64,000 bases of DNA from Saprospiraceae bacterium (GTDB lineage: Bacteria > Bacteroidota > Bacteroidia > Chitinophagales > Saprospiraceae), in the NCBI GenBank assembly GCA_965213735.1, contig CBDCAB010000005.1:279134-343133 (forward strand), read 5' to 3'. The position numbers and the translations under genes are program-made. Of this stretch, positions 9,622 to 56,972 are shown in pieces. The notes below the pieces were generated by a model, which worked only from the letters and a program-made list of their open reading frames with translations, had not been told where the DNA came from and made no database searches. Position 1 is the first letter of the stretch; each line of letters starts with the position of its first letter.

Positions 9622-9633
9622 ATAATCATCTGG

Positions 9634-10548: not shown

Positions 10549-10594
10549 CGTAAGCGATAGTCCTAATGTGTGAGATTTTTGAATTTTGTAAATC

Positions 10595-11884: not shown

Positions 11885-12110
11885 TAGAAAAAGCTTAACG
11901 TCGGCTTTGCCTAATAGGCTAAGGGCGAAAAAGCGCTTGGTTATGGACTTAAACTGGTTAGGAGTGCTGTGTTCGCGCCACACGAAGCAGGAGTACAATT
12001 CGCGAATAACAGCAGCGAGCGTGATGTTTGATCGCTACATCGCTCTCACATGAGAATACTGTGGAGGTTCTCTGTCTAGATCGTACCTTGCAACTCCTAA
12101 AACAAAAAGT

Positions 12111-12497
12111 ATGGGACTCGATTTACTAGCTACATTCAGCGTAATCAAGAAGGAGTCCGTTGCGGACTCTGCAAGTATGATCCAACCGATGATGGTCCCC
12201 GACGAAATCATAGAGCTCGTCTATGCAAGCGTGCGTGACAAGGTATGGTTTACGAACAAGAGACTGATAGCGCTTGACGTACAAGGATTAACCGGCAAAA
12301 AGAAAGAATACCGTTCTTTTCCTTACAGTAAGATTTCCTCATTATCCGTTGAGACCTCTGGCACATTTGATTTTGACGGAGACTTTAAAATCTGGGTTAG
12401 CGGTGTTGGCGTCTTTGAAATCAAGTTTTCGAAGCGCCTTAACATCGCCGAGGTGGGAAATTATATGAGTTTAAAATTGCTTTCTCCTGAGGTATAA
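12111..12497 (+). CDS. Bacterial PH-domain (YokE-like bPH) protein
   Basis: 128 aa. The pattern VWFTNKRLIALD...EYRSFPYSKISSLSVETSGTFDFDGDFKIWVSG is typical of small bacterial pleckstrin-homology-like proteins. Confidence 0.7.
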   Translation: MGLDLLATFSVIKKESVADSASMIQPMMVPDEIIELVYASVRDKVWFTNKRLIALDVQGLTGKKKEYRSFPYSKISSLSVETSGTFDFDGDFKIWVSGVGVFEIKFSKRLNIAEVGNYMSLKLLSPEV

Positions 12498-12553
12498 GAG
12501 TGAGCCCAGGATAGTTCTCGTATTGGCTTGGAAATGAGTTAGGTAACCTTCTG

Positions 12554-13072
12554 TTACAACTTCCCCATCTCCCCCCTCGACCACATAAACAGTCCCTGCT
12601 CCAACTCCCGCAGCGTTAACTCACCCTTTTGCGCCAGCAGATATTGCCGGTACTGCTCGTAGCCGCGAGCAGTCCAGGTGCTGAGGCGCATATTCGTGCC
12701 ACCGAGGGCACGTACGCTGTGTCGATCCATGACTGCGTGCACGTCAGGATTGACGAAGGCCATGATCGCGCTGGCCACTGAGATGCCCACACCAGCAAGG
12801 GCAGTGAGCGTATGCACGGCCAGATATGGCTCTTGTAGAGAGAGTGCTAAGGAGGTAATGTGATCTACTTCTGCTTCTGTATTGCGCCCTGACTTACTCT
12901 TTGTACGCGGTGACTTCCAGGCGATGAGGGCGCGCAGGTCGTCTTTGGTGAGGTGGGTGACTTTGTGTAGGCGGTCGTTGAGAGCTAAATATTCAGCTTC
13001 GCTGCGGTAATCATACCTGGAGGCTAGCTCCTTCAATTCAGATAATCCGGTTGGGATTTGAAATAGCATCAT
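12554..13072 (-). CDS. HhH-GPD-like (8-oxoguanine glycosylase OGG-fold-like) protein
   Basis: 172 aa. The helix-hairpin-helix LTALAGVGISVASAIMAF is followed by VMDRHSVRAL, which parallels LPGVGRKTANVVL...AVDTHIFRV of endonuclease III-type glycosylases. Confidence 0.65.
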   Translation of the reverse strand: MMLFQIPTGLSELKELASRYDYRSEAEYLALNDRLHKVTHLTKDDLRALIAWKSPRTKSKSGRNTEAEVDHITSLALSLQEPYLAVHTLTALAGVGISVASAIMAFVNPDVHAVMDRHSVRALGGTNMRLSTWTARGYEQYRQYLLAQKGELTLRELEQGLFMWSRGEMGKL

Positions 13073-13590
13073 GATCGAGAGACTGGAGAATCAGCAGTAC
13101 TACCCTCTACATCCTCAAAGCTAAGCGCATTTAATAAGGGGCTGTAGTTGTTCTTAAACTCTTCAACTGATTTGAGCTCAGGGTGAAACCTTACCCAAGA
13201 AACATCATTGATCCAGGTGCTACAAAAGTTGCTTATCCAGACTGATGGTATGATGTATACGTCTGGTTGCATGGTAAGACCCGCTGCGCTTTGAAGATCA
13301 ACAAATGCAAAAAATAGATTTTCGGAGTTGACGGTTGCTGCTTTATGTCCTAAGGCAAATTCAAGATGGTGCGGAGCCTTAGCCTTGCCACGGCCTCGCG
13401 TACGCATAGCCCAATCAGCCGTCTTTACCTGAACAGAAAGCGACTTTGTACCGTCTGGATTTGAAGCAAGCAAATCAACAGTGGGTGAGCCACCTCGCGG
13501 TAAAGCGACGACAAGGCCGAGGCAACACATTTGATAGGCAACAAAGTGCTCGCCTGCTGCGCCGATTAAGTTTGCTGGTAATTTGGACAT
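13069..13590 (-). CDS. PD-(D/E)xK endonuclease-like protein (PDDEXK_5 / Hjc-like pattern)
   Basis: 173 aa. GAAGEHFVAYQMCCLGLVVALP....VDLLA.......LSVQVKT gives the E ... D ... Q-x-K arrangement. Its stop overlaps the start of the HhH gene by 4 nt. Confidence 0.65.
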   Translation of the reverse strand: MSKLPANLIGAAGEHFVAYQMCCLGLVVALPRGGSPTVDLLASNPDGTKSLSVQVKTADWAMRTRGRGKAKAPHHLEFALGHKAATVNSENLFFAFVDLQSAAGLTMQPDVYIIPSVWISNFCSTWINDVSWVRFHPELKSVEEFKNNYSPLLNALSFEDVEGSTADSPVSRS

Positions 13591-14142
13591 GGTCTTTGAG
13601 CTTGACGCATATTACGCAAATAATCCCACCTCCTCGCCAAATTCAGTCCATCGCGCAAGCGCTCCCTCGACATGGCGATGCTCAAGCATTCTACGCTTAC
13701 GGTTAGACCACTCTACCGCTTTTTAAGTGATGTCTTGCACTGATGTCGCGCCGAGTATGACGTGCAAATAATCAACAGTTGCCAGCACCTCCAACGAAAA
13801 ATTGAATTCAAAACCGATAATGAGTGCCTGGAGTCGAGGTAATCGGTCTTGCTCTTGAACATCGAGGATATTCGTCGCACCTGCCCCATAAGTTCGATAT
13901 ACCTTACGCGTATCGCGTTACATAAGTAATAGAATAGCGGTCCTATTCCTCTATAATTGCGTTGGGCCGGTGTGCCTGTTAGGGAGCAATAGTGTGGACC
14001 TCGTGGCAGGGGTTGTGGCCGCGGGTGCTATCGGGTATTCCGATAGTGTAAAAAGTTCGCTCCCTAATATCAGGTTTGTAAAGGTTGACGGCCTCAAAGG
14101 TTTGAATGTTAAAGCTTTAGGGGAATTACATAGATCCCTTCA

Positions 14143-15270
14143 TTAGCTAATAGGTATGTTATCTGGTTTTAGCGGAACCTTTGCAAACAGCATCTCTTCT
14201 ATACTATCGTAGTGGTCTGGCTTAACGAAATTCGACGTAAGATCAGAAATCCTTCCAAGTTCGCGAGCACTTATCTGATAAACATTGCCCAAAATTAAGT
14301 CCTCAAGCTTTTTACAATGACCGTCCGACCATTCATTGTCGTTTCGTAAATTAGGATAGGAAGGAAAGAGAACGCAGTTTAATCCACGATCTTCACCAAA
14401 AGCTTGTACTGAAGAGTACTGGATTCCTACGAGTGGTGTGGCAGAGGTAGAGAAGGACATAATCTCTTTTTGCATGACTAGTTTCGCAATAGCATTAGGT
14501 ATGACATAGTACAGTTGATACCCGTAGGAGGCGTCACCCCTGTCTCCTGAATTAATGAACGTCGTATGGCAGAGAAGCCGTAAGGGTAGTGTGAGTAGCT
14601 CTCCAAGCCATATCAGTAGATCTTCCTTGCCGCTAATCTGGCGATCTAGGTCCCCATCTAACGATAAGTCCAGCAGTAACAGATCGCGGCGTGCTTTAAA
14701 TGCAGCTAAGTTACAGTAGTCAACATCGGCTTTGATCCTTTGCTTAGGTAAGAGGTATTTCACCTGGCCACATTCCTTTATAGCAGTAGCAATCGTTGTC
14801 GCCAGATAAAGTGAAGTAACTCCATCGGACGAGTAGCGGGTCTGACGAACTTTGTGTTGGAGTTGAATAGGTACGTGAAATATGGCCTTACGATCTTTGT
14901 CTTTGATAGATTTAACAGCCCCCATATCCCTTCGAATACGATAAAAGGGGCCATCTCCGCGCTTAATTTCTTGAACCAGACTGTTTCTACTCCCCGCTTT
15001 GCTCAGGGACTCAAACATGGATAGTAGCAGCATTTGAATCGCCGAGTCATTTGCAAGGCGTACGTACCCCAGTAGTTCGACGCACGCCTGTACCTGAGTG
15101 TTCAAGCTCGTCCGAATTTTGGACAATAGAACTATGTTGTCTTCATCCTCGTGTTTAGCAATTTCTTCTACCGCTGCACTCTGAAATCGCCTTACATGGC
15201 TCTCAAGCGAGCGAAAGTACTCCCGTCCAGGCTCAAAGGATAGAGGTTTGGCAAATTCAGAAAGCAGCAA
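14143..15270 (-). CDS. RES-domain protein with a long N-terminal helical extension
   Basis: 375 aa. RQTRYSSDGVTSLYLATTIATAIKE supplies the R and E motifs. GIQYSSVQAFGEDRGLNCVLFPS supplies the S motif. Both match the RES family pattern. Confidence 0.6.
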   Translation of the reverse strand: MLLSEFAKPLSFEPGREYFRSLESHVRRFQSAAVEEIAKHEDEDNIVLLSKIRTSLNTQVQACVELLGYVRLANDSAIQMLLLSMFESLSKAGSRNSLVQEIKRGDGPFYRIRRDMGAVKSIKDKDRKAIFHVPIQLQHKVRQTRYSSDGVTSLYLATTIATAIKECGQVKYLLPKQRIKADVDYCNLAAFKARRDLLLLDLSLDGDLDRQISGKEDLLIWLGELLTLPLRLLCHTTFINSGDRGDASYGYQLYYVIPNAIAKLVMQKEIMSFSTSATPLVGIQYSSVQAFGEDRGLNCVLFPSYPNLRNDNEWSDGHCKKLEDLILGNVYQISARELGRISDLTSNFVKPDHYDSIEEMLFAKVPLKPDNIPIS

Positions 15271-15299
15271 AGCAGAAAGGGATGTAGAAAATATACATG

Positions 15300-15962
15300 C
15301 TATGATTCGCCAGCAGGAGCTTGCTGTGCTTTAAGGTACAAGCAGAGCATTCTCCACCAGGCGGCATTGCTAAACACCATTAGGTCTGAGCTACTGAGTG
15401 AGTACGCGACTAGGTGCAAGTGCTCTTGCAGAATATTCATGGGGTACCCCTTATAGCTTACTTCGCTATTGAGTTCCTCTAAACTGACAAGTCGATTTAT
15501 CCACGGTTCGAGTATTAATTTCCAGCCTTCCCACCCATGCAAAAAACTTACAGCGACGTAGAATCCAAAGTGGGCGTTTAGTAATGATTCGAACGAGCGT
15601 TGCTGATCACTTAGTTCGCTTTCGACGTCGTAGCTAAAGATGTAAGCGTGGCTTACGGTGAGTTCAATACCGGAGAGAATCTTGAAAAGCTGCGTGTGCA
15701 CGCGACTAGATGATGTGCCATCACTATTTTCTGCTGGACTAACAAGTGGAGCAATCTGGCTGTCGCGCATTTCCCAATAGAAGTCATTCATCACCTGGCT
15801 TGCATTCACTAGGTAGGAGAGATTTGTGCCCGCCTCGTGTGTAGTTTGCAACAAACCGTTGCGCAATAACTGCGGTATATGGTCGGACACATAGCTATTG
15901 AGTACCGCTTCAAAGAATACCCTCCGATCTTCTCGAGTCTTTTGATCGTCTGCCGAAACCAT
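15300..15962 (-). CDS. Hypothetical protein, middle gene of the RES operon
   Basis: 220-aa ORF. It starts 3 nt after the upstream gene and ends 29 nt before the RES gene. No motif recognised. Confidence 0.5.
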   Translation of the reverse strand: MVSADDQKTREDRRVFFEAVLNSYVSDHIPQLLRNGLLQTTHEAGTNLSYLVNASQVMNDFYWEMRDSQIAPLVSPAENSDGTSSSRVHTQLFKILSGIELTVSHAYIFSYDVESELSDQQRSFESLLNAHFGFYVAVSFLHGWEGWKLILEPWINRLVSLEELNSEVSYKGYPMNILQEHLHLVAYSLSSSDLMVFSNAAWWRMLCLYLKAQQAPAGES

Positions 15963-15965
15963 TCC

Positions 15966-16298
15966 CTATGAGCGCTTCGCGCCTTTCGCTTTTGTCTCCA
16001 CGGCCCGTCTCAGCACGTTGCCTGGGTTCGCTTCCAACGAGACGCCTGTACGTAGGAGAACCCTATCGTTATCGAAATGAAGAGCCTCTTTACGAACGGT
16101 AATCTTAGCAGATTCTCGCTTCCATGCCTGACGTGTTTCAGCCTCCTCGTTTGGGTACGGCTTAGTAAGGTCAACCCGCTTATAGCTAGTTGGCGTCGGT
16201 CCTCTTGCAATGAGGCGCTCCTGCCATACGGCTGTAGTATTCTCCTTGAGTTCGTCCATGTCAGATCGTTTTCTACTGGTAGTAGAAAGCGGGCGCAA
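15966..16298 (-). CDS. Small hypothetical basic protein, first gene of the RES operon
   Basis: 110-aa ORF. An alternative start at 16259 (MDELKEN) gives 97 aa. It is tightly spaced with the next gene and rich in K/R/E. Confidence 0.4.
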   Translation of the reverse strand: MRPLSTTSRKRSDMDELKENTTAVWQERLIARGPTPTSYKRVDLTKPYPNEEAETRQAWKRESAKITVRKEALHFDNDRVLLRTGVSLEANPGNVLRRAVETKAKGAKRS

Positions 16299-43680: not shown

Positions 43681-46600
43681 ATGCTCAACATCAACCTAAA
43701 AGCTACTCCTTACCTCAACCTTCCCCTGCGCAACAACCATGTGCCACCAATCCGCCACCTGCAAATCCAGGCCGATCTCGCTATGGATCCGGAAGCACTA
43801 CAGCGCACATACACCGTCAAACTCGCCTGCATCCCTGCCGCAATTCAAAGCAACGTGTGGCAGCATGTCAAACTTGACGCCTCCGGCCAAGCCACCCTCC
43901 CGCTCAACGAACTCATTCTCGATTATGACTTCCTAGCCAACCTCACCGAGGCCATTCCCGGCGAAGTCATCGTGGAGGTTCTCACCTCCGATCAACAGCT
44001 CATTCTTAAAACAGCCAGCGACAAGCTGCGCATACTACCACCAAACCACTGGGGCGGCTCAGCCACAGTACCAGAACTCCTCGCCGCACACGTCCTGCCC
44101 AACGATCCCGCAACCGCTAGCATCCTACATCGCGCAGCAACCTTGCTCGCCGAGCGCAACCTCGACCTCTCCGAATACCAAACCGAAGAGCCAAGTAAAG
44201 CTGCCGCACAGGTTGTCGCCATCCTCACCGCTATCCGCGAGCGCAATCTCCTCTACGCAAGCGTGCCAGGCTCCTTCGAGCGCTTCGGGCAAAAAGTGCG
44301 AACCCCATCCGAAATAACATCTGAAGGCATCGCCAACTGTCTCGACCTCAGCTGTTTGGCCGCCGCCGCACTCGAACAGGCAGGCCTGCACCCCATCATC
44401 ATCCTCATCGAACGCCATGCCTATATCGCCTGCTGGCTCCAGCGCTCGCCTCACACCACTGGCGTCATTGACGATCCCCAAGCCCTACGCAAAGCACTTG
44501 CCAGCCACCTGCTGCTGGCCTGCGAAGCAACTGCCCTGGTAGGAGCGCACGCCAATGTCAACGAAGCCATCGATCAAGGAGCCAAACGACTGCTCAACCC
44601 AGCAGACTTCAACGTAGCCATCGACCTCCACGCCGCGCGTATCGGTGAGCGCATCACCCCGCTCAACCAAGCTCGACATAAAGACGCTAAAGGAGACACA
44701 ACAGACACCGATACTGCAGCTGAGCACAAATCACCCCAACTCGATCTTTCCGCTATCGCCAACATCGGCGACGGGGCTATTGACTACGATAAAAAGGAAG
44801 AAGCTATACTCACCGGCTCGGCCCGCCTCGACCAGTGGAAGGCCAAGCTTCTCAACCTCACCCGCCGCAATCGACTACTCAATTACCGGCTCACCGGCGG
44901 CGCCATTCATCTGCGCTACGTCGACCCGGCAACAGTCGAAGATTACCTCGCTACCGGCAAGCAAATGCGCTTCGATGTTGTGGATGAGCAACGCGCTCAG
45001 CGAGGCCAACTCGGTCGCAAACTCGAAGATGATCACTACGCAGAGGCCATTCAACAAGCTGTTTCTGGAGGCAAATTGCTGGTGATCGGCACCCCTGAAA
45101 AGCTCAACACCAACCTTCTCAAGCTCGACCGTGCCGCGCGTATAGCACTCGAAGAGGGAGGCGCAAACACGCTGTTTGTTGCCATCGGTTTTGCTGTCAA
45201 GCCCAAACCTGGACATACCGCCGAATTTCGGCCCGATGCTCCCTCCAGCGAGCGACCAGATTATGCCGCGCCCCTCATCCTGCTGCCCGTCAACCTCAAC
45301 AGGCGTAGCGCAGGCAGCGCCTACACCCTCACCTTGCGCGATGAGGAGGCGATGCTCAACCCTACCTTGCTCGAATTCCTCAAACGTGAAGCTGGCGTCA
45401 ATCTCGCCGAATATGCCCACGAATTACCTACCGACGAGAGTGGCCTAGATGTGAATCATATTCTCAACCGCGTCCGCCAAGAACTGCTCAATGTTGCAGG
45501 CTGGGAAGTGGTCGATGAGGTGGCGCTCGGCCTGTTCAGCTTTTCAAAATACCTCATGTGGCGCGACCTTGATGCCTTTGAGTCCGAACTGCGGCGAAAT
45601 CCCGTTGTGGCGCACCTCATCGATACCCCTCGCGAAGCTTATTTCAATCCCTTAGCCACTGACAATCAGACGTTTCCGGACGCTACAAGTCTCGACGATA
45701 CCTTTCCTGTCACAGATATGCTCACGCCCATGAGCGCGGATTCTTCCCAGCTGGCAGCGGTGCGGGCAGCGGCTCAAGGCATCGATTTTATTCTTGAAGG
45801 TCCGCCAGGTACCGGCAAGTCTCAGACGATTACCAACCTCATTGCCCAGCTCCTCGGCGAAGGCAAACGGGTGCTATTTGTGAGCGAAAAAACAGCTGCA
45901 CTCGATGTTGTTCAGCGCCGCCTCGACAGCATTGGCCTCGGCGAGTTTTGCCTTGAGCTACACGCCAACAATGCCACCAAAACAGCAGTCTACGATCAGC
46001 TGCGGCAGGCTCTCAATTCTGAGGCGTCTCCCACAAGCCCATTCGCGCAGACGGCCACCGAGCTGCAGCACACGCGGAGTCGCCTCAATGCGATGGTGGC
46101 GCTGATTCATCGCCCCGATCACTCCGGATTGAGTGTGTACCAAACCACCGCCTACTGCGCGCCTCGCACCACGATGCAGGTTCCCGAGCCGAGCCCTGCA
46201 GCTGTCGCTCACATGGATGCTGCGTGGCTCACCGAGGCCCGCGAGCAGGTGCGTATGATGGCGCTCTACTTGGCCGATGTGGCAGCTGAGGCGCGCTCGG
46301 TACTTGCCCCTCTTCAGGTAAGTGTGGATGCTCCAGCTTTCGCCAAAACCTGTCGCACAATGATTGCAGATGCAGCTACTTTTGCTGCCGCCAAAACGAG
46401 TTTTGCGGAAGCTTTAAAATTTGAAAGTAATAATGAACTAAATACTAATGAAGAATCTATTGAAGCGTTATCTCAACTCGCCCAACTGCTGCAGCGCGCT
46501 GAGCACCATGACTATACCGATCTAGCTGAAATGGTTGATAGTGGCCGCACCCGTCGCAGCATCGCCACCGAAACCGAAGCAACTTTCGCCCTCGCCAGCG

Positions 46601-49542
46601 CCTTTTACGCGCTTCAGGGTAGCTACCGTGCAGAGATAAATAATTTCGACGCGACAGGCACAGCGGCCGAGTGGAAAAAATCTGAGCAAGCTTGGATTTT
46701 GATGCGTTGGATTCAGCAATGGTTGATGGCCCGCAAAGTCACAGCTTTCGCCAAAACCCCACCTCAAGACCTGGGGCACGATCTCGATCGCTTAGCAGAA
46801 ATTCAAGCCCAGCGCCAGCACCTCAGCGAAGCGCAAAGCAGCACGCTCACCCTCGAACGTGAGGCTATTGATGCAGCAAAACAACGTGCAGAATTCGCCG
46901 CAACGCTTAATCAATTTGTCGACCAAGGCCATGCCCAAACCCTCGGTCTCACCACAAGTAAATTAGCTGCCGTCCTCGATGAGCTGGCAGAAGACACCCC
47001 TCCCGCACGCGCACTCCTTGCAGCTGCTGACGCATTTACCACCGCCTCATCGCGCTCCCTCACGAGTGCTCGTGCTTACACAGCTGCACGCGATGGGCAA
47101 GCTACTCCTTCAGCGCCTGCCGTTCCCTTAGCACAACTCGCCGAACAGGCAGAGGCCATGCTCCGCCACCAGCGCGATTGGCGTCCACAAGGCCTTTTTG
47201 CTGAAGCACGACAACGAGCCGAACAGCATGAACTCAGCTATTTTACCCGCCATGCAGATAATGGCCTCGCCTTGGGCACAGCGCCAGCACTCGAAGGATT
47301 TGAAGTGGGTGTGAGACGGGTTTTAGCGAAAGCTGCAACCAATAACAATCCCGAATTACGAGAATTTAGCGGCACTGCATTTGAAGATTTAATTGCGCGC
47401 TTTGAGCAACTCGATAATGCTTATTTAGATGCAGCCACCCTCGAATTGCGCCAGCGCCTCCAGCAGCGCAGACAAAACGTTTACCGCACAGAATTTCGCT
47501 CGGCATTAGGCCTGCTCAACCAGGAGCTGCAGAAAAAACGCCGCCAGCTGCCAGTGCGACAACTCATTAAGCAACTCGGAGGACTACTGCCCGAACTCAC
47601 CCCTTGTTTGCTGATGTCACCGCTCTCGATTGCGCAATATCTGCCCGCAGATGCCGAGCAGGCACGCTTTGATGTCGTAGTCTTCGATGAAGCATCGCAA
47701 ATCCCAACCTGGGATGCCATCGGCGCTATTGCTCGCGGCAAACAAGTGGTGGTAGTGGGTGACTCGAAGCAACTTCCGCCAACCTCCTTTTTTGGCGCAT
47801 CAAGTGGCGATGAAGATCGTAGCTACGACGGGGATGAGCCTGTAGTCGAAGATCTCGAAAGCATTCTCGATGAACTCAAAGCCGCCCAACTCCGCTCGTG
47901 GCGCCTCCGCTGGCACTACCGCAGCAGGGCCGAAAGTCTCATCGCTTTTAGCAACCGCACCTACTACAATGGCGACCTCAATACTTTCCCTGCACCTGTA
48001 GCAGAAGATCGTGCTGTGGCGTGGCACAAGGTAGATAGCCGTGACTATCGACAAGGGCGCAACCGAGTAGAAGCAGATCAACTAGTCGCCTATCTCGTAG
48101 AGCGCTTACGCAAAACTAGTCCCAACCAACTCACCTTTGGCGTCGTGACCTTCGGGCAGGCACAACAAACGGTAATCGAAGATATGCTGGAAACTGCGCG
48201 GCAGGAATATCCAGCTATAGAACCGCACTTTAATCCCGATCTTGATGAGCGATTATTTGTAAAGAATATTGAAAATGTGCAAGGTGATGAACGCGACGTA
48301 ATATTATTTTCAATTACCTACGGGCCTGATGAGTCAGGTAAAGTAGCAATGCGTTTTGGCCCCATGAATCAAGCAGGTGGGGAACGTCGACTCAACGTGG
48401 CGGTAACCCGAGCGCGCCGAGAAATGCACCTATTCTCGAGCATGCAGCCTGAAGATATCGACCTTCGACGACTTGGAGAAAATGCTCAAGGTGCACGCGA
48501 TTTGCGCTACTTCTTGGAGTTTGCCAAACGAGGACCGGCTGCCTTCGCCGAAAGAATAGAGGCCGTGGGTGGTGCGCAGGATTATGATTCTCCTTTTGAG
48601 CGGGCTGTTGCTGATGCGCTGCGGGCACGCGGGTATGAGACCGATCCGCAGGTGGGGGTAAGTGGCTACCGCATCGATTTAGGGGTGCGCGACCCTCGAC
48701 GTCCGGGACATTATTTGGCAGGTGTAGAGTGCGATGGCGCCACTTACCATGCTACCGCCACTGCTCGCGAACGTGACCTGCTACGGCAGTCAGTACTTGA
48801 AGGTCTCGGCTGGACGATTTTGCGCATCTGGAGTTTGGACTGGTGGCACGATGCCGAGCGCGTCGCCGACAACATGGCCAACAAGCTACAGCGGATCGCA
48901 GCTGGCGAGGTAGAGCAGCCTGATGCAGAGCAAAGCCCTCCAGCTGCCGGTGCCGCGCAGGAGGAGCTAGAAGTGCAGGTAGATGAGACAAAACCCTACG
49001 TGAAGATTGGGTCTGAAGACTTAGCTGATTTGCGTCAACGCGCTGCCGATGCAGTCCCCGCAGACCATACTGCAGAAGCACTGTACCATCCCAAGTCGAA
49101 GTCCGCGACGGTAGCTATGCTGACGCGCATAGTAGCTGCCGAAGCTCCGATTTTGCGCAAGGAGTTGGTGCGTCGTGTGGCTACAGATGGTTACCTCTTT
49201 GGCCGCACCGGTGCCAAGATTCGCAAGCTCATTACCAACCTCATCGAGCAGGAAACCTACTCCAGGGGTGTGCACGGGGAGGTGGTGGTTTGGCGAGATG
49301 CGCAGCAGGCTAAAGAGCCAGTCGAGTTTCGCCCTCCCGCTGCAGGCGATCCTTCTCCGCGTGGAGTAGCCGACATTCCGCTCGTCGAACTGGTAGCCCT
49401 TGCTCGCACCTACATCACCCAAAATTTGGATGAAGATCAACTCATCCGGGCTATGGGGGCCGACATTGGAGTAAGTAGCGTCAGAGGCAGTTCGCGCAAG
49501 CGGGTGTTGCAGGCTATCGAGGTGGCTTGGGCTGGGGGGTAG
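43681..49542 (+). CDS. 1953-aa multidomain protein with a transglutaminase-like core, DUF4011-like region, Upf1-like SF1 helicase (AAA_11/AAA_12), DUF559-like endonuclease and DUF3320-like tail
   Basis: - Transglutaminase-like core: GIANCLDLSCLAAAALEQAGLHP...ERHAYIACW...VIDD gives a Cys-His-Asp pattern, with the Cys codon at 44338-44340.
- DUF4011-like region: WKAKLLNLTRRNRLLNY.
- Helicase: Walker A GPPGTGKSQT (45799-45822), VVFDEASQI (about 47686-47700), VVVGDSKQLPPT and NVAVTRARREM.
- DUF559-like endonuclease: GYRIDLGV...GVECDGATYH...LGWTILRIWS. Confidence 0.8.
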   Translation: MLNINLKATPYLNLPLRNNHVPPIRHLQIQADLAMDPEALQRTYTVKLACIPAAIQSNVWQHVKLDASGQATLPLNELILDYDFLANLTEAIPGEVIVEVLTSDQQLILKTASDKLRILPPNHWGGSATVPELLAAHVLPNDPATASILHRAATLLAERNLDLSEYQTEEPSKAAAQVVAILTAIRERNLLYASVPGSFERFGQKVRTPSEITSEGIANCLDLSCLAAAALEQAGLHPIIILIERHAYIACWLQRSPHTTGVIDDPQALRKALASHLLLACEATALVGAHANVNEAIDQGAKRLLNPADFNVAIDLHAARIGERITPLNQARHKDAKGDTTDTDTAAEHKSPQLDLSAIANIGDGAIDYDKKEEAILTGSARLDQWKAKLLNLTRRNRLLNYRLTGGAIHLRYVDPATVEDYLATGKQMRFDVVDEQRAQRGQLGRKLEDDHYAEAIQQAVSGGKLLVIGTPEKLNTNLLKLDRAARIALEEGGANTLFVAIGFAVKPKPGHTAEFRPDAPSSERPDYAAPLILLPVNLNRRSAGSAYTLTLRDEEAMLNPTLLEFLKREAGVNLAEYAHELPTDESGLDVNHILNRVRQELLNVAGWEVVDEVALGLFSFSKYLMWRDLDAFESELRRNPVVAHLIDTPREAYFNPLATDNQTFPDATSLDDTFPVTDMLTPMSADSSQLAAVRAAAQGIDFILEGPPGTGKSQTITNLIAQLLGEGKRVLFVSEKTAALDVVQRRLDSIGLGEFCLELHANNATKTAVYDQLRQALNSEASPTSPFAQTATELQHTRSRLNAMVALIHRPDHSGLSVYQTTAYCAPRTTMQVPEPSPAAVAHMDAAWLTEAREQVRMMALYLADVAAEARSVLAPLQVSVDAPAFAKTCRTMIADAATFAAAKTSFAEALKFESNNELNTNEESIEALSQLAQLLQRAEHHDYTDLAEMVDSGRTRRSIATETEATFALASAFYALQGSYRAEINNFDATGTAAEWKKSEQAWILMRWIQQWLMARKVTAFAKTPPQDLGHDLDRLAEIQAQRQHLSEAQSSTLTLEREAIDAAKQRAEFAATLNQFVDQGHAQTLGLTTSKLAAVLDELAEDTPPARALLAAADAFTTASSRSLTSARAYTAARDGQATPSAPAVPLAQLAEQAEAMLRHQRDWRPQGLFAEARQRAEQHELSYFTRHADNGLALGTAPALEGFEVGVRRVLAKAATNNNPELREFSGTAFEDLIARFEQLDNAYLDAATLELRQRLQQRRQNVYRTEFRSALGLLNQELQKKRRQLPVRQLIKQLGGLLPELTPCLLMSPLSIAQYLPADAEQARFDVVVFDEASQIPTWDAIGAIARGKQVVVVGDSKQLPPTSFFGASSGDEDRSYDGDEPVVEDLESILDELKAAQLRSWRLRWHYRSRAESLIAFSNRTYYNGDLNTFPAPVAEDRAVAWHKVDSRDYRQGRNRVEADQLVAYLVERLRKTSPNQLTFGVVTFGQAQQTVIEDMLETARQEYPAIEPHFNPDLDERLFVKNIENVQGDERDVILFSITYGPDESGKVAMRFGPMNQAGGERRLNVAVTRARREMHLFSSMQPEDIDLRRLGENAQGARDLRYFLEFAKRGPAAFAERIEAVGGAQDYDSPFERAVADALRARGYETDPQVGVSGYRIDLGVRDPRRPGHYLAGVECDGATYHATATARERDLLRQSVLEGLGWTILRIWSLDWWHDAERVADNMANKLQRIAAGEVEQPDAEQSPPAAGAAQEELEVQVDETKPYVKIGSEDLADLRQRAADAVPADHTAEALYHPKSKSATVAMLTRIVAAEAPILRKELVRRVATDGYLFGRTGAKIRKLITNLIEQETYSRGVHGEVVVWRDAQQAKEPVEFRPPAAGDPSPRGVADIPLVELVALARTYITQNLDEDQLIRAMGADIGVSSVRGSSRKRVLQAIEVAWAGG

Positions 49543-49602: not shown

Positions 49603-49828
49603 TTTAGCAATGTTTAGCAAACTTTCCCTTACAGGTCCAACCATGCAGGAGAAGTGGCGGATGGTGTGTGAGTAGCTGGCAAGTCTACCACGTAATAGAA
49701 GGCTATTTGGTTACGATAGCACCAGTGGACTTGCCTCTGACAGCTATAAGAGCGCCATCAGCTGCAATTGAGAGGAGATGCGGGCGGAAAATGATTCCTG
49801 GCTTCATCCTTCTCCCACACCACTCAGC

Positions 49829-50540
49829 GTAGATACTCCGTACTGGGCGGTTCCCTTAACCTGCTATGCGATATTCGCTCGCATACGGTTCAGGCCGATT
49901 CGCCTAAACCACACGTTATCCATCGACATGTGGGCTGGAGGGCTGCTCCCTTTTGTGCCCACCCTGGACGTGAAACCGTCCTACCCAACTCTGTCCGCTC
50001 CCCGGATATGCCAGCTCGCTTCGATTTAGGGCCACCCACCACGCTTTCAGTCGCGCCAAACGGCAACTCCGTCTGCTGTGGCTGTGCCGAGTGCGGCACC
50101 GGGCGTTTTCCTGGACCCTTGTTCGCGTTGTCCTCAGTGTGGAGCACCGGCTGCTCCTTGAGATGAAGGTTCGGCCCTTTGCTTTAGGCAATCAATACCT
50201 CGCTACTAAGGCCTCGGCTGAACTCTCCCTCCCTCTCGGCTTATGCCGCAACACGGCGACTTTACGGGAGAACTCCCACGGTAAGTTCTATATCCTCCTC
50301 AATATCCAGCGTGATTTACCACCCGCCCGTTACGGCTGACTTTGTGGTTTCGCGGTTCACGGCCCGCTTACCCAGACGGTAGTGCTTACATCAAGTTTCT
50401 GTTCGTCTGGATGTAAATTTTTTCACAGTGCCTTCAGAATCCGCTTCACAGGCTACACCCTTGTGCTTCACTAACGATTCCTCGTCGACTAGGCTCGTTC
50501 GGGACTCTAACCCTAAAGACATAGAACATGCATGGCATAC
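49829..50540 (-). mobile_element. ORF-less group II intron-like RNA inserted just after a terminator hairpin (class C-like placement)
   Basis: All features are read on the minus strand.
- The element starts GUAUGCCAUG 7 nt after the adhesin terminator stem.
- UAGGGUUAGAGUCCCGAAC (50515-50497) sits at intron nt 26-44. It closely matches my recollection of domain I of the Oceanobacillus iheyensis IIC intron (UAGGGUGAGAGUCCCGAAC at the same offset).
- GCACAAGGGUGU and GGAUUCUGAAGG are also similar to that intron.
- 5' UAUGCCA (50539-50533) pairs with UGGCAUA (50013-50007), followed by CCGGGGAG, which would close domain I.
- A domain V-like hairpin GAACCGUAUGCGA...UCGCAUA...GGUU lies at 49891-49858.
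- No ORF longer than 91 aa is present on either strand.
- The 3' boundary is approximate. Confidence 0.6.
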
Positions 50541-50547
50541 TAAAATG

Positions 50548-50574
50548 CCCCTCTCCATATAGAATGAAGAGGGG
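50548..50574 (-). terminator. Terminator hairpin of the giant T9SS adhesin gene
   Basis: On the minus strand, CCCCTCT-13 nt-AGAGGGG is followed by CAUUUUA. The hairpin starts 22 nt after the stop codon. Confidence 0.7.
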
Positions 50575-50596
50575 CTGATGAGGTTAAAAAGTGTCG

Positions 50597-53500
50597 CTAG
50601 AGCTTCACAAAGCGCGTGAGCACTGATCGTCCGTGGTCGGTAGTGGTTTTCACGGAGTACAATCCACTCGGCAAAGCGTCTACATGTATGGTCGCTCTAT
50701 TTGAGGCGGTCGCACCCAGTTCGACGTGAAACTGCTGTCCACTAAGTGTGTGGACTGAAATGTCGGACCAAGCAATTCGTTCAGTTCGAGCCAAACCATG
50801 TATCGTAACGCTAACGGCATCTGTTGCCGGATTCGGCGTCAACGTCACTGTTAGTGCGTCACGCATGGCATCATCTTGGGTCGCTCGTGCCCGCTTAGAC
50901 CGCTGTTCGAGTTCGCCTGATGCGCACTCATCCAGATGCACAGGGAGGAAATAATCCTGCTCAGACCTCAGATAGCCCCACTCGCCTTCGCCATATTCAG
51001 GAAAAGTATACAGGTCAGACTCACGATCCACTTCAGGATTGCCGAAGTGCATGAGGAAGTGATGGTTTCCAAGTGGTATGCGAGCATAGCTCACAAAACC
51101 TCCCTCGATGTACTGTAGCTCCTCTTGTAGCTCACCGCCATAAACTGCGACGAGGTGATCCTGAAATTCGAGTTCCTGATCGAAATAGTGTTCGATGCTG
51201 TAGTAACTGTACACTTCATCGCTTCCTTCACAGTAGACGTAAGTTTCGCCTGGGTGCGGGTTGGTGATGAAATTATTGCACTCTTCAGCCAAGTCGACAC
51301 ACAGCGAGGACGAGCAGAGGGTGTTATTACCATCAGCATCTAGACACTTTATGTCGAATCGGAAGCAAGCCTCGCGATGATCGGTGTAGCGGGTGTAGTC
51401 GAATTGCATGTCACCGACCTCAATGACGGTGCCATTCTTAGTGTAGTTGAGATTCCACTGTGGTCCCCCCGCCGCAAAGTTTGAAAGCACGCCTGTTTCT
51501 GTCCACATTTGCACTTGATGTATACTATCACAGCCCAACGGTAGCTGCAATTCAACGCCTTTCAGATGGATCGTTACGGGATTATTAGTGCAAAGGGCGG
51601 AGGTAGCATCAACATCGTAGGTCACTTCACCACCACACGAAACGTTTCCACATTCTCCCTCCAATCCTTTCGGCCCGGATCCTAAACAGGCAGTGGTTTC
51701 GTAGCAAACGATGTCGCTTCCACTGTTACAGAAGCTAAGCGTCATGCAAGCCTCAGAGGGATTAATACTATCCTGAACAGCAACAAGAACTTCCACGTTG
51801 TAGGAGTCTCCGCCTTCCAGCGTAATTATCGGGTCGGTAATAAAGTCAGCATTAGAAATCCTAACTGGGTTATTACCACACAATTCTGCGTCTCCTGGTT
51901 CTGGATTCGTGGTATGGAAGTTCAGGTAGAAGTATTGCATGTCCGGATTTTCACCGTAGCGACACACGGTATTTTCGGCGATGAGGATTGGGCCGGTGCA
52001 GGATGCTGGCACACACTCTACGCAGAAACCTTCGACATTGATTTCGCATGACTCTCCCGACGGCAAGGCGTACTCCACCATCAGTGAGTACTCCCCATTG
52101 CCACAGTTGAGGTAGTCTACCCAGTCTTCGACACGAGAATTTGTACCTGAAGGCGGATTGCAACCAGCTGGCGTAGTCCCTGATGATGAGATGAACTGCC
52201 ATGACCAACTGCTAAATTGACTAAATGTACCTGCACTAAGCACGCTGGGTAGATTCTCACAGTCAAGGATACAGCCTGTGAGGATGTTTGGCAGAGTCAG
52301 GCCTGGAACAAATACGCCATTAGAAGGATCTGACGAACATTCTTGGACATTTGAAGCCCTCGCCGTGACGAATGAAGCAGCTGTTGAAGCGGGCACCAAA
52401 AATTGTGACGAACCCCGTAAAGCCAATGTTCCACTTAAATACCAGTCAACCTCAGCCCCATTTAAGGTCAGAAATAAAACTTGCGAAGGGTCACATTCCA
52501 AAATTGACGTGATAACAGGAGGCTCAGGCACCTCCAACACTGCAAACTCCTCAGTCGATTCTTGGCATACAAAGGTGCCGTCTAGCACGACGACGGAAAG
52601 TCGATTCGCAGCTCCACTCACATTTAGCAAGCTGCTCACAGCAGGATCAGTCAAATCCAATGTCCGCAGTATGGTTTGGGTAGGCTGTAACTGGTTATCA
52701 ATTACAGTACCGTTGAGCACTAGCTGGTAGGTAAATGCCGTACTTGCTGGGGCTAGCACTGTATACGTAACCACCTCATTAGCGCAGTACTGAGCTTCAG
52801 GTACATTGAGGGGTAGCAGCAACGCTGGGTCTACGTCCACCGATTGGCTAACTTCAAACTGACATCCCGCTGCGTCCTCCACATGTAGCTGCACAAAGGC
52901 ATCTGTACCCAAGATGATCTGCGGGGTGTTGCTCGGACCTGGCTGCCAAGTGTATGTGTAAGGTGCCGTACCGGGCTCTTGAGGGTCTGGTATAAACTCA
53001 ACGAGTGCCTGTGAGTTGCATGCGTTTGGCGTCGCTACAAGGTCTCCCTCAAACTCGGAAGATGTAACGGTAATTACTTGCTCTGTAGATACCCGGCACC
53101 CGAGCGAATTCATCGCAGTTAGGGTCACTGTGTACGTCCCTGGCATCGCGAACTCTTTAATTGGTTCGGCAAGCATGCTCGAAGAATTATCGCCAAAGTC
53201 CCAGTGGTATGTACTTGAAGGATCAACGTTCCCTACCAGTTCGAATAGGAACGGGGTGTTTTCGCAGATCGTAGGGTTCATCTGATTGACACTAAATTCA
53301 GCAGTTGCCCGCGCTGGTAGTATTAGTGATTCACAATATTCCACCTGATACGGCTCACCAGGAGTGACGTCCGGATGCATAAAAGTGGCCTGTGGCGACA
53401 TGCAGATTTGGACCTCTGTGGCAACAGCGGGCTGGTTGATTGCAAATACTTCCGTGTTATCGCCACCGCTCGCTAGCACCGCACCCGATGCGGCCAGTCG

Positions 53501-56500
53501 GACCTCCCAATTGTAATCACCCTGAGCGATTTGATTTTCGAACACAACCTCAGTAAGATCTTCAACCCGTAAGAGATACTCACCCTCTTGGCTGCCTTCT
53601 CCGCACTCGAGCGCGTAATCCATGTGAGGGATGTAGGGGATCTCTACCAGTTTGGTCGTTTCTCCACAGATGTAATCTCCCAGGTATGTCCCTTCGGCAA
53701 AGAAGTACAGTTCGTAAACTCCTGGATTAGTGAAGGTGCTGAAGGTGATGAACTCGTTAGTAAAATCTGCTATCTCCCCTCTTGTAAAACCTTCTTCCAG
53801 ATTCACAGTTGACACACGGGTACCAAAAGTAGCACCTGAGAGTATTATGGCAGGATCGTTTCGAGGATCAAAAAACGTACATACGCCTGTCTTGACAGAG
53901 TCCTTCGTCTCCACGTACGCCTCTATCACGCCTGGCGGCTTAGAGTTAACTCCGATAGGCCCTGGGTTGACGACGGTGATCTCGGGGCAAAGTCCTTCAC
54001 AACCACTAGATGCGCAGTCATAGTCGAGCGGAACGAGTATGTCACGCGAACAGGTGAACTCCTCTCCATCAATTGTATAGGTGCGAGTCAATGTAAGGAC
54101 GTAACCACACTCGGCATCCGGGTCGATATGGTCGGTGAGCGAACTCAAATTGTCGCCTGCACCGATTAAGGTTGAAGTAGTTGAATCGCCATCGGGACAA
54201 ACCCGAAACCACTCATAGTATCCTTCGGAGGCTGATGAGGATTGGGATGCGTAGAAGGTGACGTCAACAGGGAGCGCCACATCGCGATCGCACCGCTCAC
54301 CATGGTAGACCGTCGAAATCTCAATTCCAGGATTATAGAGGTACTGGATGGAACCATAGACCACCTCTTCTAGCAGGCAATCTGCGTACTGAATCGTCGC
54401 AACCACATTGGCAGGGCCGAAGCTTGGCAATGGCTGCGTGGGTAGTGGCGCAAAATCCCAGGTAAGGCCAGGTCCGTTATGGGTGAACACTTGCCCCGCC
54501 TGATCAGTGAGCACCCAATCGATGTTGCTCACGTCGAGCGTTGAATTTGGAGTTACTGTAAATAAAGCTTGGTCGTTTGTACATGTAGCTACAGGGAATA
54601 CTTCCAAACTTGCCTCACCAACCGTCTCAAAAATGATTGGCTCGGTGGTCACTGAGAAGGGTTCTCCGCAGATCTCGTAATCCACGGTAACAGTGATGGG
54701 TTGGGTGAAATCCTCTATTAGATGAAATCGAATGCCAGCTTCTGCTGTGCCTTGACCATCTACCACGCTCCCCGCCTGATGAGGAGTGACTGTCCATTGA
54801 TAGTCCGTCCCAGTCTCACATGGAGTCATCGTAGGACCACACGAAAGTATGAACACAGCGGGAGTTTCGCTATCGAGGCAAAGGCCATTGTCGTGTTCGA
54901 TGCTGCCTGCCTGTACATCAAGCTCTGTGATGTCGACGATAAGTGGTGCACTCTCGCAGCCCGCGTCAACACGACGCACCTCAAGTTGGTAGGGTGGAGA
55001 ATTACCCCACTCTACATTTACTTGAGCACCAGTTGCTGTAGTAGTACCGGAACTTACAAAGGTGCCTCCCGTTACCTCCCAGGTATAGGAGCTTGTAATT
55101 GGTTCGACAACATAGGTTGATACAGTATTGGGGCACACTTCCACTGGCCCATCTATATCCGTCGGCGCATCCGTCCGATTGACTAGGATCTGAAAGTCAT
55201 CTTCACAAGTTTGAAGAGTGGTAACATCACCTGTCGTAGGATCTGTATATGTATAGTCAGATATCTCGAGGGTCAGCAGACCTGCTTGAGTTGCGGGTAT
55301 CGTTATGGGTGACTGGTCATTAAAGTTGAGCGTGCCCGTAGCATTGCCAAGCTGATATGTTGCCGTATAATCAGCTGCAGATGAGCCGGAGTAAGTTATG
55401 CTTATTTCATCTCCTACACAGATAGGAGCGTCAGAAACCATAAACCGAGGTATTCTATTGACCTCCACGCTTCCTGTGGATTCACAACCGCCTAATGGAT
55501 AGGTTATTATCACGCCGATTGTTCCCGTGACGCTTTGGGCACCAAAGTTAAAGCGGGCGCCTGCTAAGTGGTTTGTACTGGTGTAGGAGGGTGATATGTC
55601 GCTATAGCTCCACTGGTAAATCGCCCCTGGGATAGCGTGAGTTATCGCGGATGTTGATTGAAAGTCATCTATGCAGGTAGGATCTACATTTATCTCCGCG
55701 GTAGAGCCTATAATTGGAACCTCAATTACAGTTGGTTGAATACAACCCGTGCAACCAGCTGGAGGTGTAAGAATTAGCTGGCCAGTGGTGGTCATGTCAA
55801 CATCGTCCCACGTGACCGTAATCTCATCTCCAGTGGTGCTACTTACCATACCATTAATTGCCGACCAAGTGACATCTGGGCATATTGCCCCAGCACCATT
55901 GTCTAAATCGAGATTGTAGGTTAATGTGGAGTCCGCGCAGGCTACCTCCTGACAGAGCACCTCATACCTCGGACCTTCTTCGACCACGACAGTAGCCATA
56001 TCGACGACTTGTTCACATAGGCAAGGCGTCCGCACGAGCAACTCGATTGTGTGCTGGCCAGCGACTGTAAATTCATAGTCCAACACATTTCCGATTATTG
56101 TGACCCCGTTGACGCTCCAAACTAGTGTATTGTCATCTATAGGGAGATCGACTCCAAAGCTAAGAGATTCGTTGCGACATATTTGGATCGTCTGATCGGC
56201 ATCGTACACGCTGTTGGTGATGTTGTAGTTGGGTACATCCTCAATAAATCCAGTGTAGATGTATTCGTCGCTACAACCGGCTGCGGTCGTGACCGTAGCG
56301 CGAACAGTAAACGCCCCTAAACCGGTGTACAAGCCAGTCACGCTTTGCCCAGTTGTTGCGGATAGAGTAATTGGTCCAGTGGTTGACCAGACAACGTCGC
56401 CATCCGGACTAGCGGTAAAGACATCCGATTGATCTGGAAAGCAATGTACCAACCCGGAGCTTCCGCCGCTAGTTTCAGGGCAGTCATAGCCTGTTTCTGA

Positions 56501-56848
56501 AGTTATCAGCGCGTTGACCTCTGGTGCAACTGTAATTTGCAATGTTGCGGCAGAGCCTCCAAATGTAGCAGTGAGTTCTGTGGTGCCTGAAGCAAAGAAG
56601 TCGATGACGGCTTCGCCATTTGCGTTGACGAATACGTTGCCTAGGAGCGGGTCGGCCAGCTCCCAGGCTATTGCACCGCCGGGAACGGGTTCGAGATTGT
56701 AGGTAACGACATCCCCGAGGCATGGTTGGGCGTCAGTGGTCTCAATTACGCTCATTTGAGCGTAGGTACTTGCGTAGCAAAGACTTGCAAGTAGAAGTAG
56801 CGTGACTGCCCTCAGTCGAGGCAGCACGGCGTGTAGTGTGTTGTTCAT
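50597..56848 (-). CDS. Giant T9SS-secreted adhesin-like protein with PKD/Ig-like repeats (about 2083 aa)
   Basis: The start is chosen at MNNTLHAVLPRLRAVTLLLLASLCYASTYAQ (signal peptide). A PKD-type motif HWDFGDNSS is present. The C-terminal LTPNPATDAVSVTIHGL...LYSVKT is a T9SS type A sorting domain. Confidence 0.85.
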   Translation of the reverse strand: MNNTLHAVLPRLRAVTLLLLASLCYASTYAQMSVIETTDAQPCLGDVVTYNLEPVPGGAIAWELADPLLGNVFVNANGEAVIDFFASGTTELTATFGGSAATLQITVAPEVNALITSETGYDCPETSGGSSGLVHCFPDQSDVFTASPDGDVVWSTTGPITLSATTGQSVTGLYTGLGAFTVRATVTTAAGCSDEYIYTGFIEDVPNYNITNSVYDADQTIQICRNESLSFGVDLPIDDNTLVWSVNGVTIIGNVLDYEFTVAGQHTIELLVRTPCLCEQVVDMATVVVEEGPRYEVLCQEVACADSTLTYNLDLDNGAGAICPDVTWSAINGMVSSTTGDEITVTWDDVDMTTTGQLILTPPAGCTGCIQPTVIEVPIIGSTAEINVDPTCIDDFQSTSAITHAIPGAIYQWSYSDISPSYTSTNHLAGARFNFGAQSVTGTIGVIITYPLGGCESTGSVEVNRIPRFMVSDAPICVGDEISITYSGSSAADYTATYQLGNATGTLNFNDQSPITIPATQAGLLTLEISDYTYTDPTTGDVTTLQTCEDDFQILVNRTDAPTDIDGPVEVCPNTVSTYVVEPITSSYTWEVTGGTFVSSGTTTATGAQVNVEWGNSPPYQLEVRRVDAGCESAPLIVDITELDVQAGSIEHDNGLCLDSETPAVFILSCGPTMTPCETGTDYQWTVTPHQAGSVVDGQGTAEAGIRFHLIEDFTQPITVTVDYEICGEPFSVTTEPIIFETVGEASLEVFPVATCTNDQALFTVTPNSTLDVSNIDWVLTDQAGQVFTHNGPGLTWDFAPLPTQPLPSFGPANVVATIQYADCLLEEVVYGSIQYLYNPGIEISTVYHGERCDRDVALPVDVTFYASQSSSASEGYYEWFRVCPDGDSTTSTLIGAGDNLSSLTDHIDPDAECGYVLTLTRTYTIDGEEFTCSRDILVPLDYDCASSGCEGLCPEITVVNPGPIGVNSKPPGVIEAYVETKDSVKTGVCTFFDPRNDPAIILSGATFGTRVSTVNLEEGFTRGEIADFTNEFITFSTFTNPGVYELYFFAEGTYLGDYICGETTKLVEIPYIPHMDYALECGEGSQEGEYLLRVEDLTEVVFENQIAQGDYNWEVRLAASGAVLASGGDNTEVFAINQPAVATEVQICMSPQATFMHPDVTPGEPYQVEYCESLILPARATAEFSVNQMNPTICENTPFLFELVGNVDPSSTYHWDFGDNSSSMLAEPIKEFAMPGTYTVTLTAMNSLGCRVSTEQVITVTSSEFEGDLVATPNACNSQALVEFIPDPQEPGTAPYTYTWQPGPSNTPQIILGTDAFVQLHVEDAAGCQFEVSQSVDVDPALLLPLNVPEAQYCANEVVTYTVLAPASTAFTYQLVLNGTVIDNQLQPTQTILRTLDLTDPAVSSLLNVSGAANRLSVVVLDGTFVCQESTEEFAVLEVPEPPVITSILECDPSQVLFLTLNGAEVDWYLSGTLALRGSSQFLVPASTAASFVTARASNVQECSSDPSNGVFVPGLTLPNILTGCILDCENLPSVLSAGTFSQFSSWSWQFISSSGTTPAGCNPPSGTNSRVEDWVDYLNCGNGEYSLMVEYALPSGESCEINVEGFCVECVPASCTGPILIAENTVCRYGENPDMQYFYLNFHTTNPEPGDAELCGNNPVRISNADFITDPIITLEGGDSYNVEVLVAVQDSINPSEACMTLSFCNSGSDIVCYETTACLGSGPKGLEGECGNVSCGGEVTYDVDATSALCTNNPVTIHLKGVELQLPLGCDSIHQVQMWTETGVLSNFAAGGPQWNLNYTKNGTVIEVGDMQFDYTRYTDHREACFRFDIKCLDADGNNTLCSSSLCVDLAEECNNFITNPHPGETYVYCEGSDEVYSYYSIEHYFDQELEFQDHLVAVYGGELQEELQYIEGGFVSYARIPLGNHHFLMHFGNPEVDRESDLYTFPEYGEGEWGYLRSEQDYFLPVHLDECASGELEQRSKRARATQDDAMRDALTVTLTPNPATDAVSVTIHGLARTERIAWSDISVHTLSGQQFHVELGATASNRATIHVDALPSGLYSVKTTTDHGRSVLTRFVKL

Positions 56849-56972
56849 GTTTTTGAAGTGTTGTTCGCAAAGCCACCCGCAACAGCGTATATTCACGAGC
56901 TAAATCTCTGTGCGTATCCGCCGCTGCATGAGCCTTCGATCAGCAATGCACCACAAACCTTGCCACTACTTT

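Follow-up and report, generated by a model that had tools for sequence, protein, structure and literature searches.

Results

The spacer and its surroundings

The stretch of DNA analysed here, a 64-kb window, contains two convergent genes, 43681..49542 on the plus strand and 50597..56896 on the minus strand, which are separated by a spacer of 1,054 nt in which the longest ORF does not exceed 91 aa. The minus-strand gene encodes a protein of 2,099 aa that contains PKD domains and a T9SS Por_Secre_tail, which points to a host that probably belongs to the Bacteroidota. On the minus strand the stop codon of this gene is followed by the hairpin 50575-50547, by the hexanucleotide ATTTTA and then by GTATG, which begins at 50540. 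An earlier note on this DNA proposed that the spacer harbours an intron-like RNA of group II, class C, extending from 50540 to 49829 and lacking an ORF. The spacer element is indeed a bacterial class C (IIC) group II intron, although its 3' end and internal organization differ from those proposed. The anti-phage gene ProA adjoins the element. The features of the locus, all on the minus strand, are as follows.

50547..50575, minus strand: intrinsic-terminator hairpin of gene 50597..56896 (terminator scan: 12-pair stem, 7 G-C pairs, T-rich tail)
50541..50546, minus strand: last 6 nt of the 5' exon (ATTTTA), a remnant of the T run
49767..50540, minus strand: whole intron, 774 nt, 5' GUAUG ... CUCAAU 3' (comparison of copies and family-invariant end CCTACTCGAT)
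50276..50535, minus strand: domain I (basal helices 50535-50531/50280-50276 and 50527-50518/50294-50285)
50288..50455, minus strand: domain I core (match to Rfam group-II-D1D4-3)
50174..50251, minus strand: domain II, J2/3 and domain III (match to Rfam group-II-D1D4-1)
49852..50173, minus strand: domain IV remnant, made up of 5' DIV, the junction of the deletion and what is left of the IEP gene at its 3' end (placed between the D3 and DV matches)
49944..50147, minus strand: stretch homologous to aa 1-68 of the maximal 503-aa ORF of the relatives (tblastn)
49944..49956, minus strand: junction of the 1,168-nt deletion (overlap of both tblastn segments)
49859..49893, minus strand: hairpin earlier described as domain V-like (within the segment that tblastn aligns with IEP aa 454-500)
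49819..49851, minus strand: true domain V (match to model R1)
49769..49817, minus strand: domain VI (match to model R1)

Group II identity and the fold of domain I

When the whole 64-kb window was scanned with Rfam, the single match above its gathering score was RF02001 (group-II-D1D4-3) at 50455-50288 on the minus strand, with 71.5 bits (E 2.8e-12; gathering score 32), a value far above chance that bears out the original group II call. A permissive scan limited to the spacer added RF01998 (group-II-D1D4-1) at 50251-50174 on the same strand, which with 32.0 bits (E 1.3e-3) was marginally below the gathering score (35); in the two close relatives described below, this model scored 37.9 bits at the corresponding position. 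RF00029 (Intron_gpII, domains V-VI), the model that had been recommended as a check, returned no match in the spacer in this permissive scan even at E values up to 10.

The near-identical domain I motif to which the earlier note had drawn attention, TAGGGTTAGAGTCCCGAAC at 50515-50497, is the sole match in the window, with a chance expectation of 0.06 at three or fewer mismatches. Domain I also carries GCACAAGGGTGT and GGATTCTGAAGG, two of the further blocks listed with that motif, but the remaining block, AGGACGG, is not a D3 motif since it sits in DIV, the D3 match being at 50251-50174. The basal strands of domain I are paired in the minimum-free-energy fold, and the 10-bp helix 50527-50518/50294-50285 displays, between the window and its relatives, one double change from A-U to G-C together with two wobble-compatible changes. 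The complementarity between 50539-50533 and 50013-50007, previously interpreted as a 7-bp helix closing domain I, does exist; closure of the domain, however, is at 50294-50276, where it is accompanied by covariation. The assignments of domains I-IV made in the earlier note were wrong.

Two full-length relatives define the boundaries of the intron

JGI metagenomes were scanned with the D1 motif GGGTNAGAGTCCCGAAC-N24-36-AAGGGTG, which yielded 117 loci. In a blastn comparison of the element with these loci only two close relatives were found, L209 (Ga0209303_1011795) and L167 (marine metagenome contig ORXR01018840), which are 96.5% identical to each other and are both full-length IIC introns of 1,944 nt. 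The element aligns with the two relatives in two blocks, with 82% identity over nt 1-596 and 77% over nt 597-707, between which L209 and L167 alone carry an additional 1,168 nt. Identity in domains I-III is 87-90%, and the domain IV remnant is 74.7% and 71.7% identical to L209. The earlier note had looked to covariance-model matches, and to similar copies behind other terminators, to decide on group II identity; both were found, in the form of the RF02001 match and of L209 and L167, and favoured it.

The window copy, L209 and L167 have a common start, GTATGCCATGCATG, and in 3/3 copies GTATG lies 5-8 nt past a G+C-rich hairpin/T run, the sequences upstream being unrelated. Because the three copies share their start in unrelated contexts, the 5' end at 50540 and insertion of the IIC type behind a terminator are confirmed, in agreement with the position originally described (hairpin 50575-50547, 6 nt, then GTATG). 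The hairpin 50575-50547 is the DNA/RNA motif targeted by the IIC intron, and the orientation of the intron is that of the upstream gene 50597..56896. The hexanucleotide ATTTTA at 50541..50546, the counterparts of which are TTTTTTTG in L209 and TTTTT in L167, is presumed to be IBS1, and the intron-free site would consist of the terminator hairpin followed by ATTTTATGCAGC. At the other end, the homology between the three copies extends 62 nt past 49829 and stops after ...CTC(A/G)AT, while the 3' end CCTACTCGAT is invariant in 31 related IIC introns and is followed by variable sequence. On the basis of the copy homology and the invariant 3' end, the intron therefore comprises 50540-49767, a length of 774 nt in place of the 712 nt proposed previously.

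Domains V and VI

A covariance model, R1, was derived from an alignment of the DV-DVI regions of 31 related IIC introns. The alignment folds as canonical domains V and VI with compensatory changes in 16 of the 28 pairs; the family DV comprises a 10-bp lower helix with a CGC triad, a 2-nt bulge and a short upper helix, and DVI contains a bulged A. Of the 20 family members scanned with RF00029, 11 gave a match in the homologous DV-DVI region. In the window R1 produced exactly one match, at 49859-49762 on the minus strand (39.0 bits, E 7.8e-10), in which domain V possesses the CGC triad C49849-G49848-C49847 and the bulge A49830-C49829. The base previously taken as the 3' end of the intron, 49829, is thus the C of the AC bulge, and the proposed boundary split the true domain V in two.

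The hairpin at 49893-49859 that was earlier described as domain V-like exists, with a predicted stability of -13.8 kcal/mol, but it belongs to what remains of the 3' end of the IEP gene, and the true domain V starts 8 nt 3' of it. As a candidate domain V, this hairpin with its AAC triad was rejected: its counterpart in L209 and L167 has 13 differences in 42 positions and adopts other hairpins. The structure is accordingly a hairpin in decaying, formerly coding sequence and not a catalytic domain.

Loss of the reverse transcriptase

The ORF of both L209 and L167 encodes a protein of 503 aa with RVT_1 (Pfam, aa 137-344) and GIIM (aa 358-425 in L209 and 358-434 in L167) domains. It matches NCBIfam TIGR04416, 'group II intron reverse transcriptase/maturase', with 372 bits over aa 81-421, and its closest solved relative is the GsI-IIC RT (6AR1; E 1.7e-100, aa 73-482). 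The ribozyme motifs, the target site and the type of IEP found in the relatives all uphold the class C assignment made in the earlier note.

As that note had also stated, there is no RT or maturase ORF at the locus, nothing longer than 91 aa being present in the spacer between the convergent genes. Two remnants of the gene were nevertheless detected by tblastn. IEP aa 1-68 align with window positions 50147-49944 (53% identity, E 4e-15), and aa 454-500 with 49956-49816 (68% identity, E 1e-13), the latter segment containing an in-frame stop; the two segments differ in reading frame. In a global alignment with the relatives the window copy has one gap, of 1,168 nt. A single deletion of 1,168 nt took out aa 69-453, and with them the whole RVT_1 and GIIM core, and the element is ORF-less because this deletion removed the RT/maturase core. 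In L209 an imperfect direct repeat of ~33 nt is found at both ends of the segment that is deleted in the window, which suggests slippage or illegitimate recombination. The stretch homologous to aa 1-68 precedes the conserved IEP core, the alignment with the GsI-IIC RT beginning at aa 73, and may correspond to untranslated DIVa. Within the 64-kb window there was no other RT-like sequence and no second copy of the intron.

Erosion of the ribozyme

The catalytic domains of the window copy depart from those of the family at positions that are otherwise invariant. In domain V the pair 49846/49824 is C.A and the pair 49840/49832 is C.C, both being C-G in 31/31 relatives. The branch-point A of CCUACUCGAU, invariant in 31/31 relatives, is missing between 49773 and 49772 (CCU-CUCAAU in the window), a loss also visible as a 1-nt gap in the 3' alignment of the three copies. 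The DVI helix is present, although four of its predicted pairs are non-standard in the R1 alignment. These differences are reflected in the model scores: R1 gives 39 bits for the window, compared with 62-102 for 50 full-length family matches and 85-86 for L209 and L167, and RF02001 gives 71.5 bits, compared with 123-160 for 22 family members. Two ORF-less relatives of 671 nt each, L139 and L191, retain full model scores, and thus the low scores of the window copy are not explained by loss of the ORF alone.

Domain I is similarly affected. The window copy breaks 8 of 27 D1 consensus pairs, most relatives 0-2, and L209 and L167 one each. In comparison with L209, D1 has 7 broken pairs, shows compensation in 2 and maintains 4 through a one-sided change, with differences at 30% of the paired and 16% of the unpaired positions; such an excess of change at paired positions is a signature of relaxed constraint. 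A MAFFT/RNAalifold analysis of D1-D3 from 73 loci, which is noisy as many of the loci are truncated, gave a comparable picture, the window breaking 8 of 43 pairs and L209 and L167 one each. Domains I-III still retain their 87-90% identity to relatives that look active, and a few of the changes are compensatory. The nearest relatives being only ~80% identical to the element, some of its 'defects' could represent states peculiar to its lineage and not decay.

Protonation can turn a C.A mismatch into a tolerated wobble, and IIC introns may splice hydrolytically without the branch A; formation of a lariat, and hence complete reverse splicing, requires the branch-point A. Considering the damage described above, the element is most likely catalytically crippled, immobile and unable to form a lariat, with some residual (hydrolytic) ribozyme activity being possible.

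Searches for further copies

A relaxed pattern of the 49893-49859 hairpin, searched against 185,579 GTDB representative genomes, found two chance matches (L001 and L002) that are devoid of group II signal, and a strict pattern had no match in the JGI metagenomes. Screening a six-frame pseudo-protein of the spacer against 5.8 billion proteins, in which sibling copies might appear as mis-called ORFs, returned nothing, and in a blastn search the spacer matched no plasmid or phage sequence. In viral contigs the D1 motif scans had no match; a broader D1D4-3 motif scan found 120 loci, none of which is close to the element.

Discussion

The spacer very probably contains a degenerate, non-autonomous copy of a IIC intron, in which the RT core has been deleted and the ribozyme is eroding. 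The earlier note had offered degeneracy, a divergent lineage or a domesticated RNA as possible interpretations; the first of these is favoured, whereas the non-canonical domain V, with its AAC triad, 7-nt loop and shifted bulge, that was to mark a divergent or domesticated lineage has fallen away. The history that we envisage starts with a full-length ancestor of ~1.94 kb, encoding an RT/maturase in domain IV, which would have reverse-spliced into DNA 6 nt past the hairpin of the Rho-independent terminator that follows the T9SS-cargo gene 50597..56896. A single deletion of 1,168 nt, with its junction in the ~33-nt imperfect direct repeat, would later have generated the 774-nt ORF-less element, after which uncompensated mutations would have accrued, among them the C.A and C.C mismatches in domain V, the loss of the branch A in DVI and the broken helices of D1. 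As the element lies beyond the terminator it is expected to be transcribed rarely and interrupts no gene, and, since it would be outside the transcript and neutral to the host, nothing would select for splicing.

It could be argued that the element is a functional, non-autonomous 'mini-intron' for which a full-length sibling at another place in the genome supplies, in trans, the RT/maturase for both splicing and mobilisation. The IEP normally binds the 5' region of DIV, which has been kept; domains I-III are recognisable and both boundaries are intact. Bacterial ORF-less introns are rare and nearly always share their genome with related introns, usually with a helper IEP that may act in trans (PMC4424553). 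The branch-point A is deleted, however, many D1 pairs are broken along with two invariant ones in DV, and the model scores are about half those of the relatives. Furthermore, no second copy and no IEP is present within the 64-kb window, the 3'-region hairpin has no genuine counterpart in the 185,579 representative genomes or the JGI metagenomes, and the metagenome scan with the D1 motif provided only the full-length L209 and L167 as close matches. A trans-mobilised intron is thus unlikely. The more general proposition that the element is a working RNA in spite of its damage, be it a HYER-like hydrolytic ribozyme or a trans-mobilised mini-intron, which would have to tolerate the C.A beside the triad and dispense with the branch A, is in our view decidedly unlikely.

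A further alternative is that an ORF-less IIC ribozyme has been retained for hydrolytic cleavage of nucleic acids, or for another host function, in which branching would be dispensable. With a length of ~0.6 kb (637 nt in HYER1), the hydrolytic endonucleolytic ribozymes known as HYERs (Liu et al., Science 2024, as described in PMC12990946 and PMC11754743) belong to the IIC introns that lack an ORF, and they are defined by multicopy propagation and robust hydrolytic activity (PMC12990946, PMC11754743). Going by the published descriptions, the element resembles them as a natural IIC RNA that is ORF-less and 0.6-0.8 kb long (here 774 nt), and it retains the CGC triad and the AC bulge. It may differ from HYERs in copy number, one copy being present in the 64-kb window, and in its catalytic core, which carries uncompensated damage, including the broken invariant DV pairs. 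Substitutions are commoner at paired positions and mostly break pairs, which is the opposite of what purifying selection would produce, and conserved copies are absent from the GTDB representatives, the JGI metagenomes and the 117 D1-motif loci; the intact ORF-less L139 and L191 illustrate what a maintained element looks like. The adjacent anti-phage gene ProA could be taken to point to a host function, but this adjacency is explained by the convergence of the genes together with targeting of the terminator by the intron. We consider conservation of the element for a host function very unlikely. Finally, there is next to no probability that the element represents a divergent group II lineage with its domain V in the AAC-triad hairpin with the 7-nt loop at 49893-49859 and its end at 49829, for although the hairpin is real (-13.8 kcal/mol) and its 5' strand presumably resembles that of domain V of yeast ai5-gamma, it is contained in the match to IEP aa 454-500, a canonical IIC DV-DVI found by an independent model (E 8e-10) directly follows it, homology to the relatives runs 62 nt past 49829, and the hairpin sequence is absent elsewhere in GTDB representative genomes and JGI metagenomes.

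As a degenerate IIC copy the element is within known group II intron biology, both ORF-less introns and IEP remnants having been recorded already. It has the D1 motifs UAGGGUNAGAGUCCCGAAC, CAAGGGUG and UCUGAAGG in common with the IIC introns O.i.I1 (Oceanobacillus iheyensis) and B.h.I1 (Bacillus halodurans). Class C introns have a domain V of about 34 nt and, in DVI, a bulged branch-point A 7-8 nt before the 3' splice site, and the RT/maturase that they encode in domain IV lacks an endonuclease domain. Similar to introns of this type, its domain V contains a 2-nt bulge besides the CGC triad, the DVI of its family ends in ...CUCGAU, the IEP of its relatives is closest to the GsI-IIC RT, and it sits a few nucleotides past an intrinsic terminator in the direction of transcription. 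In contrast with these introns, the window copy has no IEP and no branch A, and invariant DV pairs as well as some D1 pairs are broken. The 5' end of the window copy, L209 and L167 is GUAUG, while the usual group II 5' end is GUGYG. Insertion behind intrinsic terminators is a described property of IIC introns (PMC4424553, PMC1702495). Organellar introns are also known to contain IEP remnants and to undergo sporadic, ongoing loss of the IEP and of retromobility (PMC4424553); like ORF-less introns with such remnants, the element has had its ORF deleted and keeps recognisable pieces of the IEP gene.

Beyond correct annotation the significance of the element is small. It illustrates how a IIC retroelement may die, being harmless behind a terminator, losing its RT in one deletion and then eroding. 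It also provides a caution, in that within a group II-like region a strong hairpin close to the 3' end need not be domain V, and it indicates that the boundaries of group II introns are best set through comparison with relatives. Natural protein-free IIC ribozymes are better sought in L139 and L191, the intact ORF-less introns of 671 nt.

Loss of the ORF and intact ORF-less relatives

In L209 and L167, the full-length metagenomic relatives of the window intron, the core of the IEP (RT/maturase) is flanked on both sides by an imperfect direct repeat of ~33 nt, GGCGGCTTCACACACGGGGTGGGCACAAAAGC / GGCGGGTTCTTCTCGTGGATGGTATACCAAAGC, and the deletion junction of the window intron falls within this repeat, which may constitute a built-in hotspot for ORF loss.

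L209 about 2114-2083 and 947-915, minus strand: ~33-nt imperfect direct repeat (L167 likewise)
L209 770-2281, minus strand: maximal ORF of the relatives, aa 1-72 being its upstream part
L139 9053-9723, plus strand: ORF-less IIC intron, 671 nt
L191 about 784-114, minus strand: ORF-less IIC intron, 671 nt

The maximal ORF of the relatives is GTG-initiated, and about 70 aa precede the homology to the GsI-IIC RT, which starts at aa 73. The reading frame of this upstream stretch, whose counterpart in the window is 50147-49944, is open in L209, L167 and the window alike. In the relatives, translation of the IEP probably begins close to Met74, in which case the preceding ~200 nt may be DIVa RNA that is not translated.

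The introns of the metagenome loci L139 and L191 belong to the same IIC sub-lineage as the window copy, and both lack an ORF. Their cores are intact, with scores of 138 and 134 bits, respectively, against RF02001 (group-II-D1D4-3) and of 86 and 80 bits against R1, the covariance model built from related IIC DV-DVI regions. As natural protein-free (HYER-like) ribozymes, these two introns are better candidates than the window copy.

Pairing of the intron 5' end

The earlier note had proposed that a 7-bp helix involving intron nt 2-8 closes D1. The complementarity between 50539-50533 and 50013-50007 (minus strand) is real, but the latter segment lies in DIV and the helix does not close D1. In L209 and L167, 6/7 positions are retained (one as G.U). 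The complementarity likely reflects chance or shared descent; a role, for instance in masking the 5' splice site, would be conceivable.

Related matches at other loci

Additional weak DV-DVI-like matches, of about 26 bits, were found at L203 (one) and L225 (two). Introns inserted in tandem, or previously at the same sites, may have left them behind.

L203 3441-3538, minus strand: weak DV-DVI-like match, immediately 5' of the intron start
L225 1784-1868 and 1168-1250, minus strand: weak DV-DVI-like matches

The generic D1D4-3 motif, TCTGAAGG-N15-32-GACGAACAG, matched at least 120 IMG/VR contigs (L003-L122), whereas the O.i.-type D1 motif, TAGGGTNAGAGTCCCGAAC, had no matches in IMG/VR viral contigs.

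Genomic setting

The convergent neighbour of the window intron is a defence gene.

Window 43681-49542, plus strand: convergent neighbour, 1,953 aa, with NCBIfam NF058533 and Pfam domains

Its product scores 1776.9 bits against NF058533 ('anti-phage protein ProA'), for which the cut-off is 1500, and contains the Pfam domains DUF4011, AAA_11, AAA_12, REase_MTES_1575 and DUF3320. The proximity of this ProA-family gene to the intron looks incidental. Elsewhere in the window, G+C at 8000-16000 is 0.42-0.48, below that of the flanks (about 0.53), and this region may be an acquired island.
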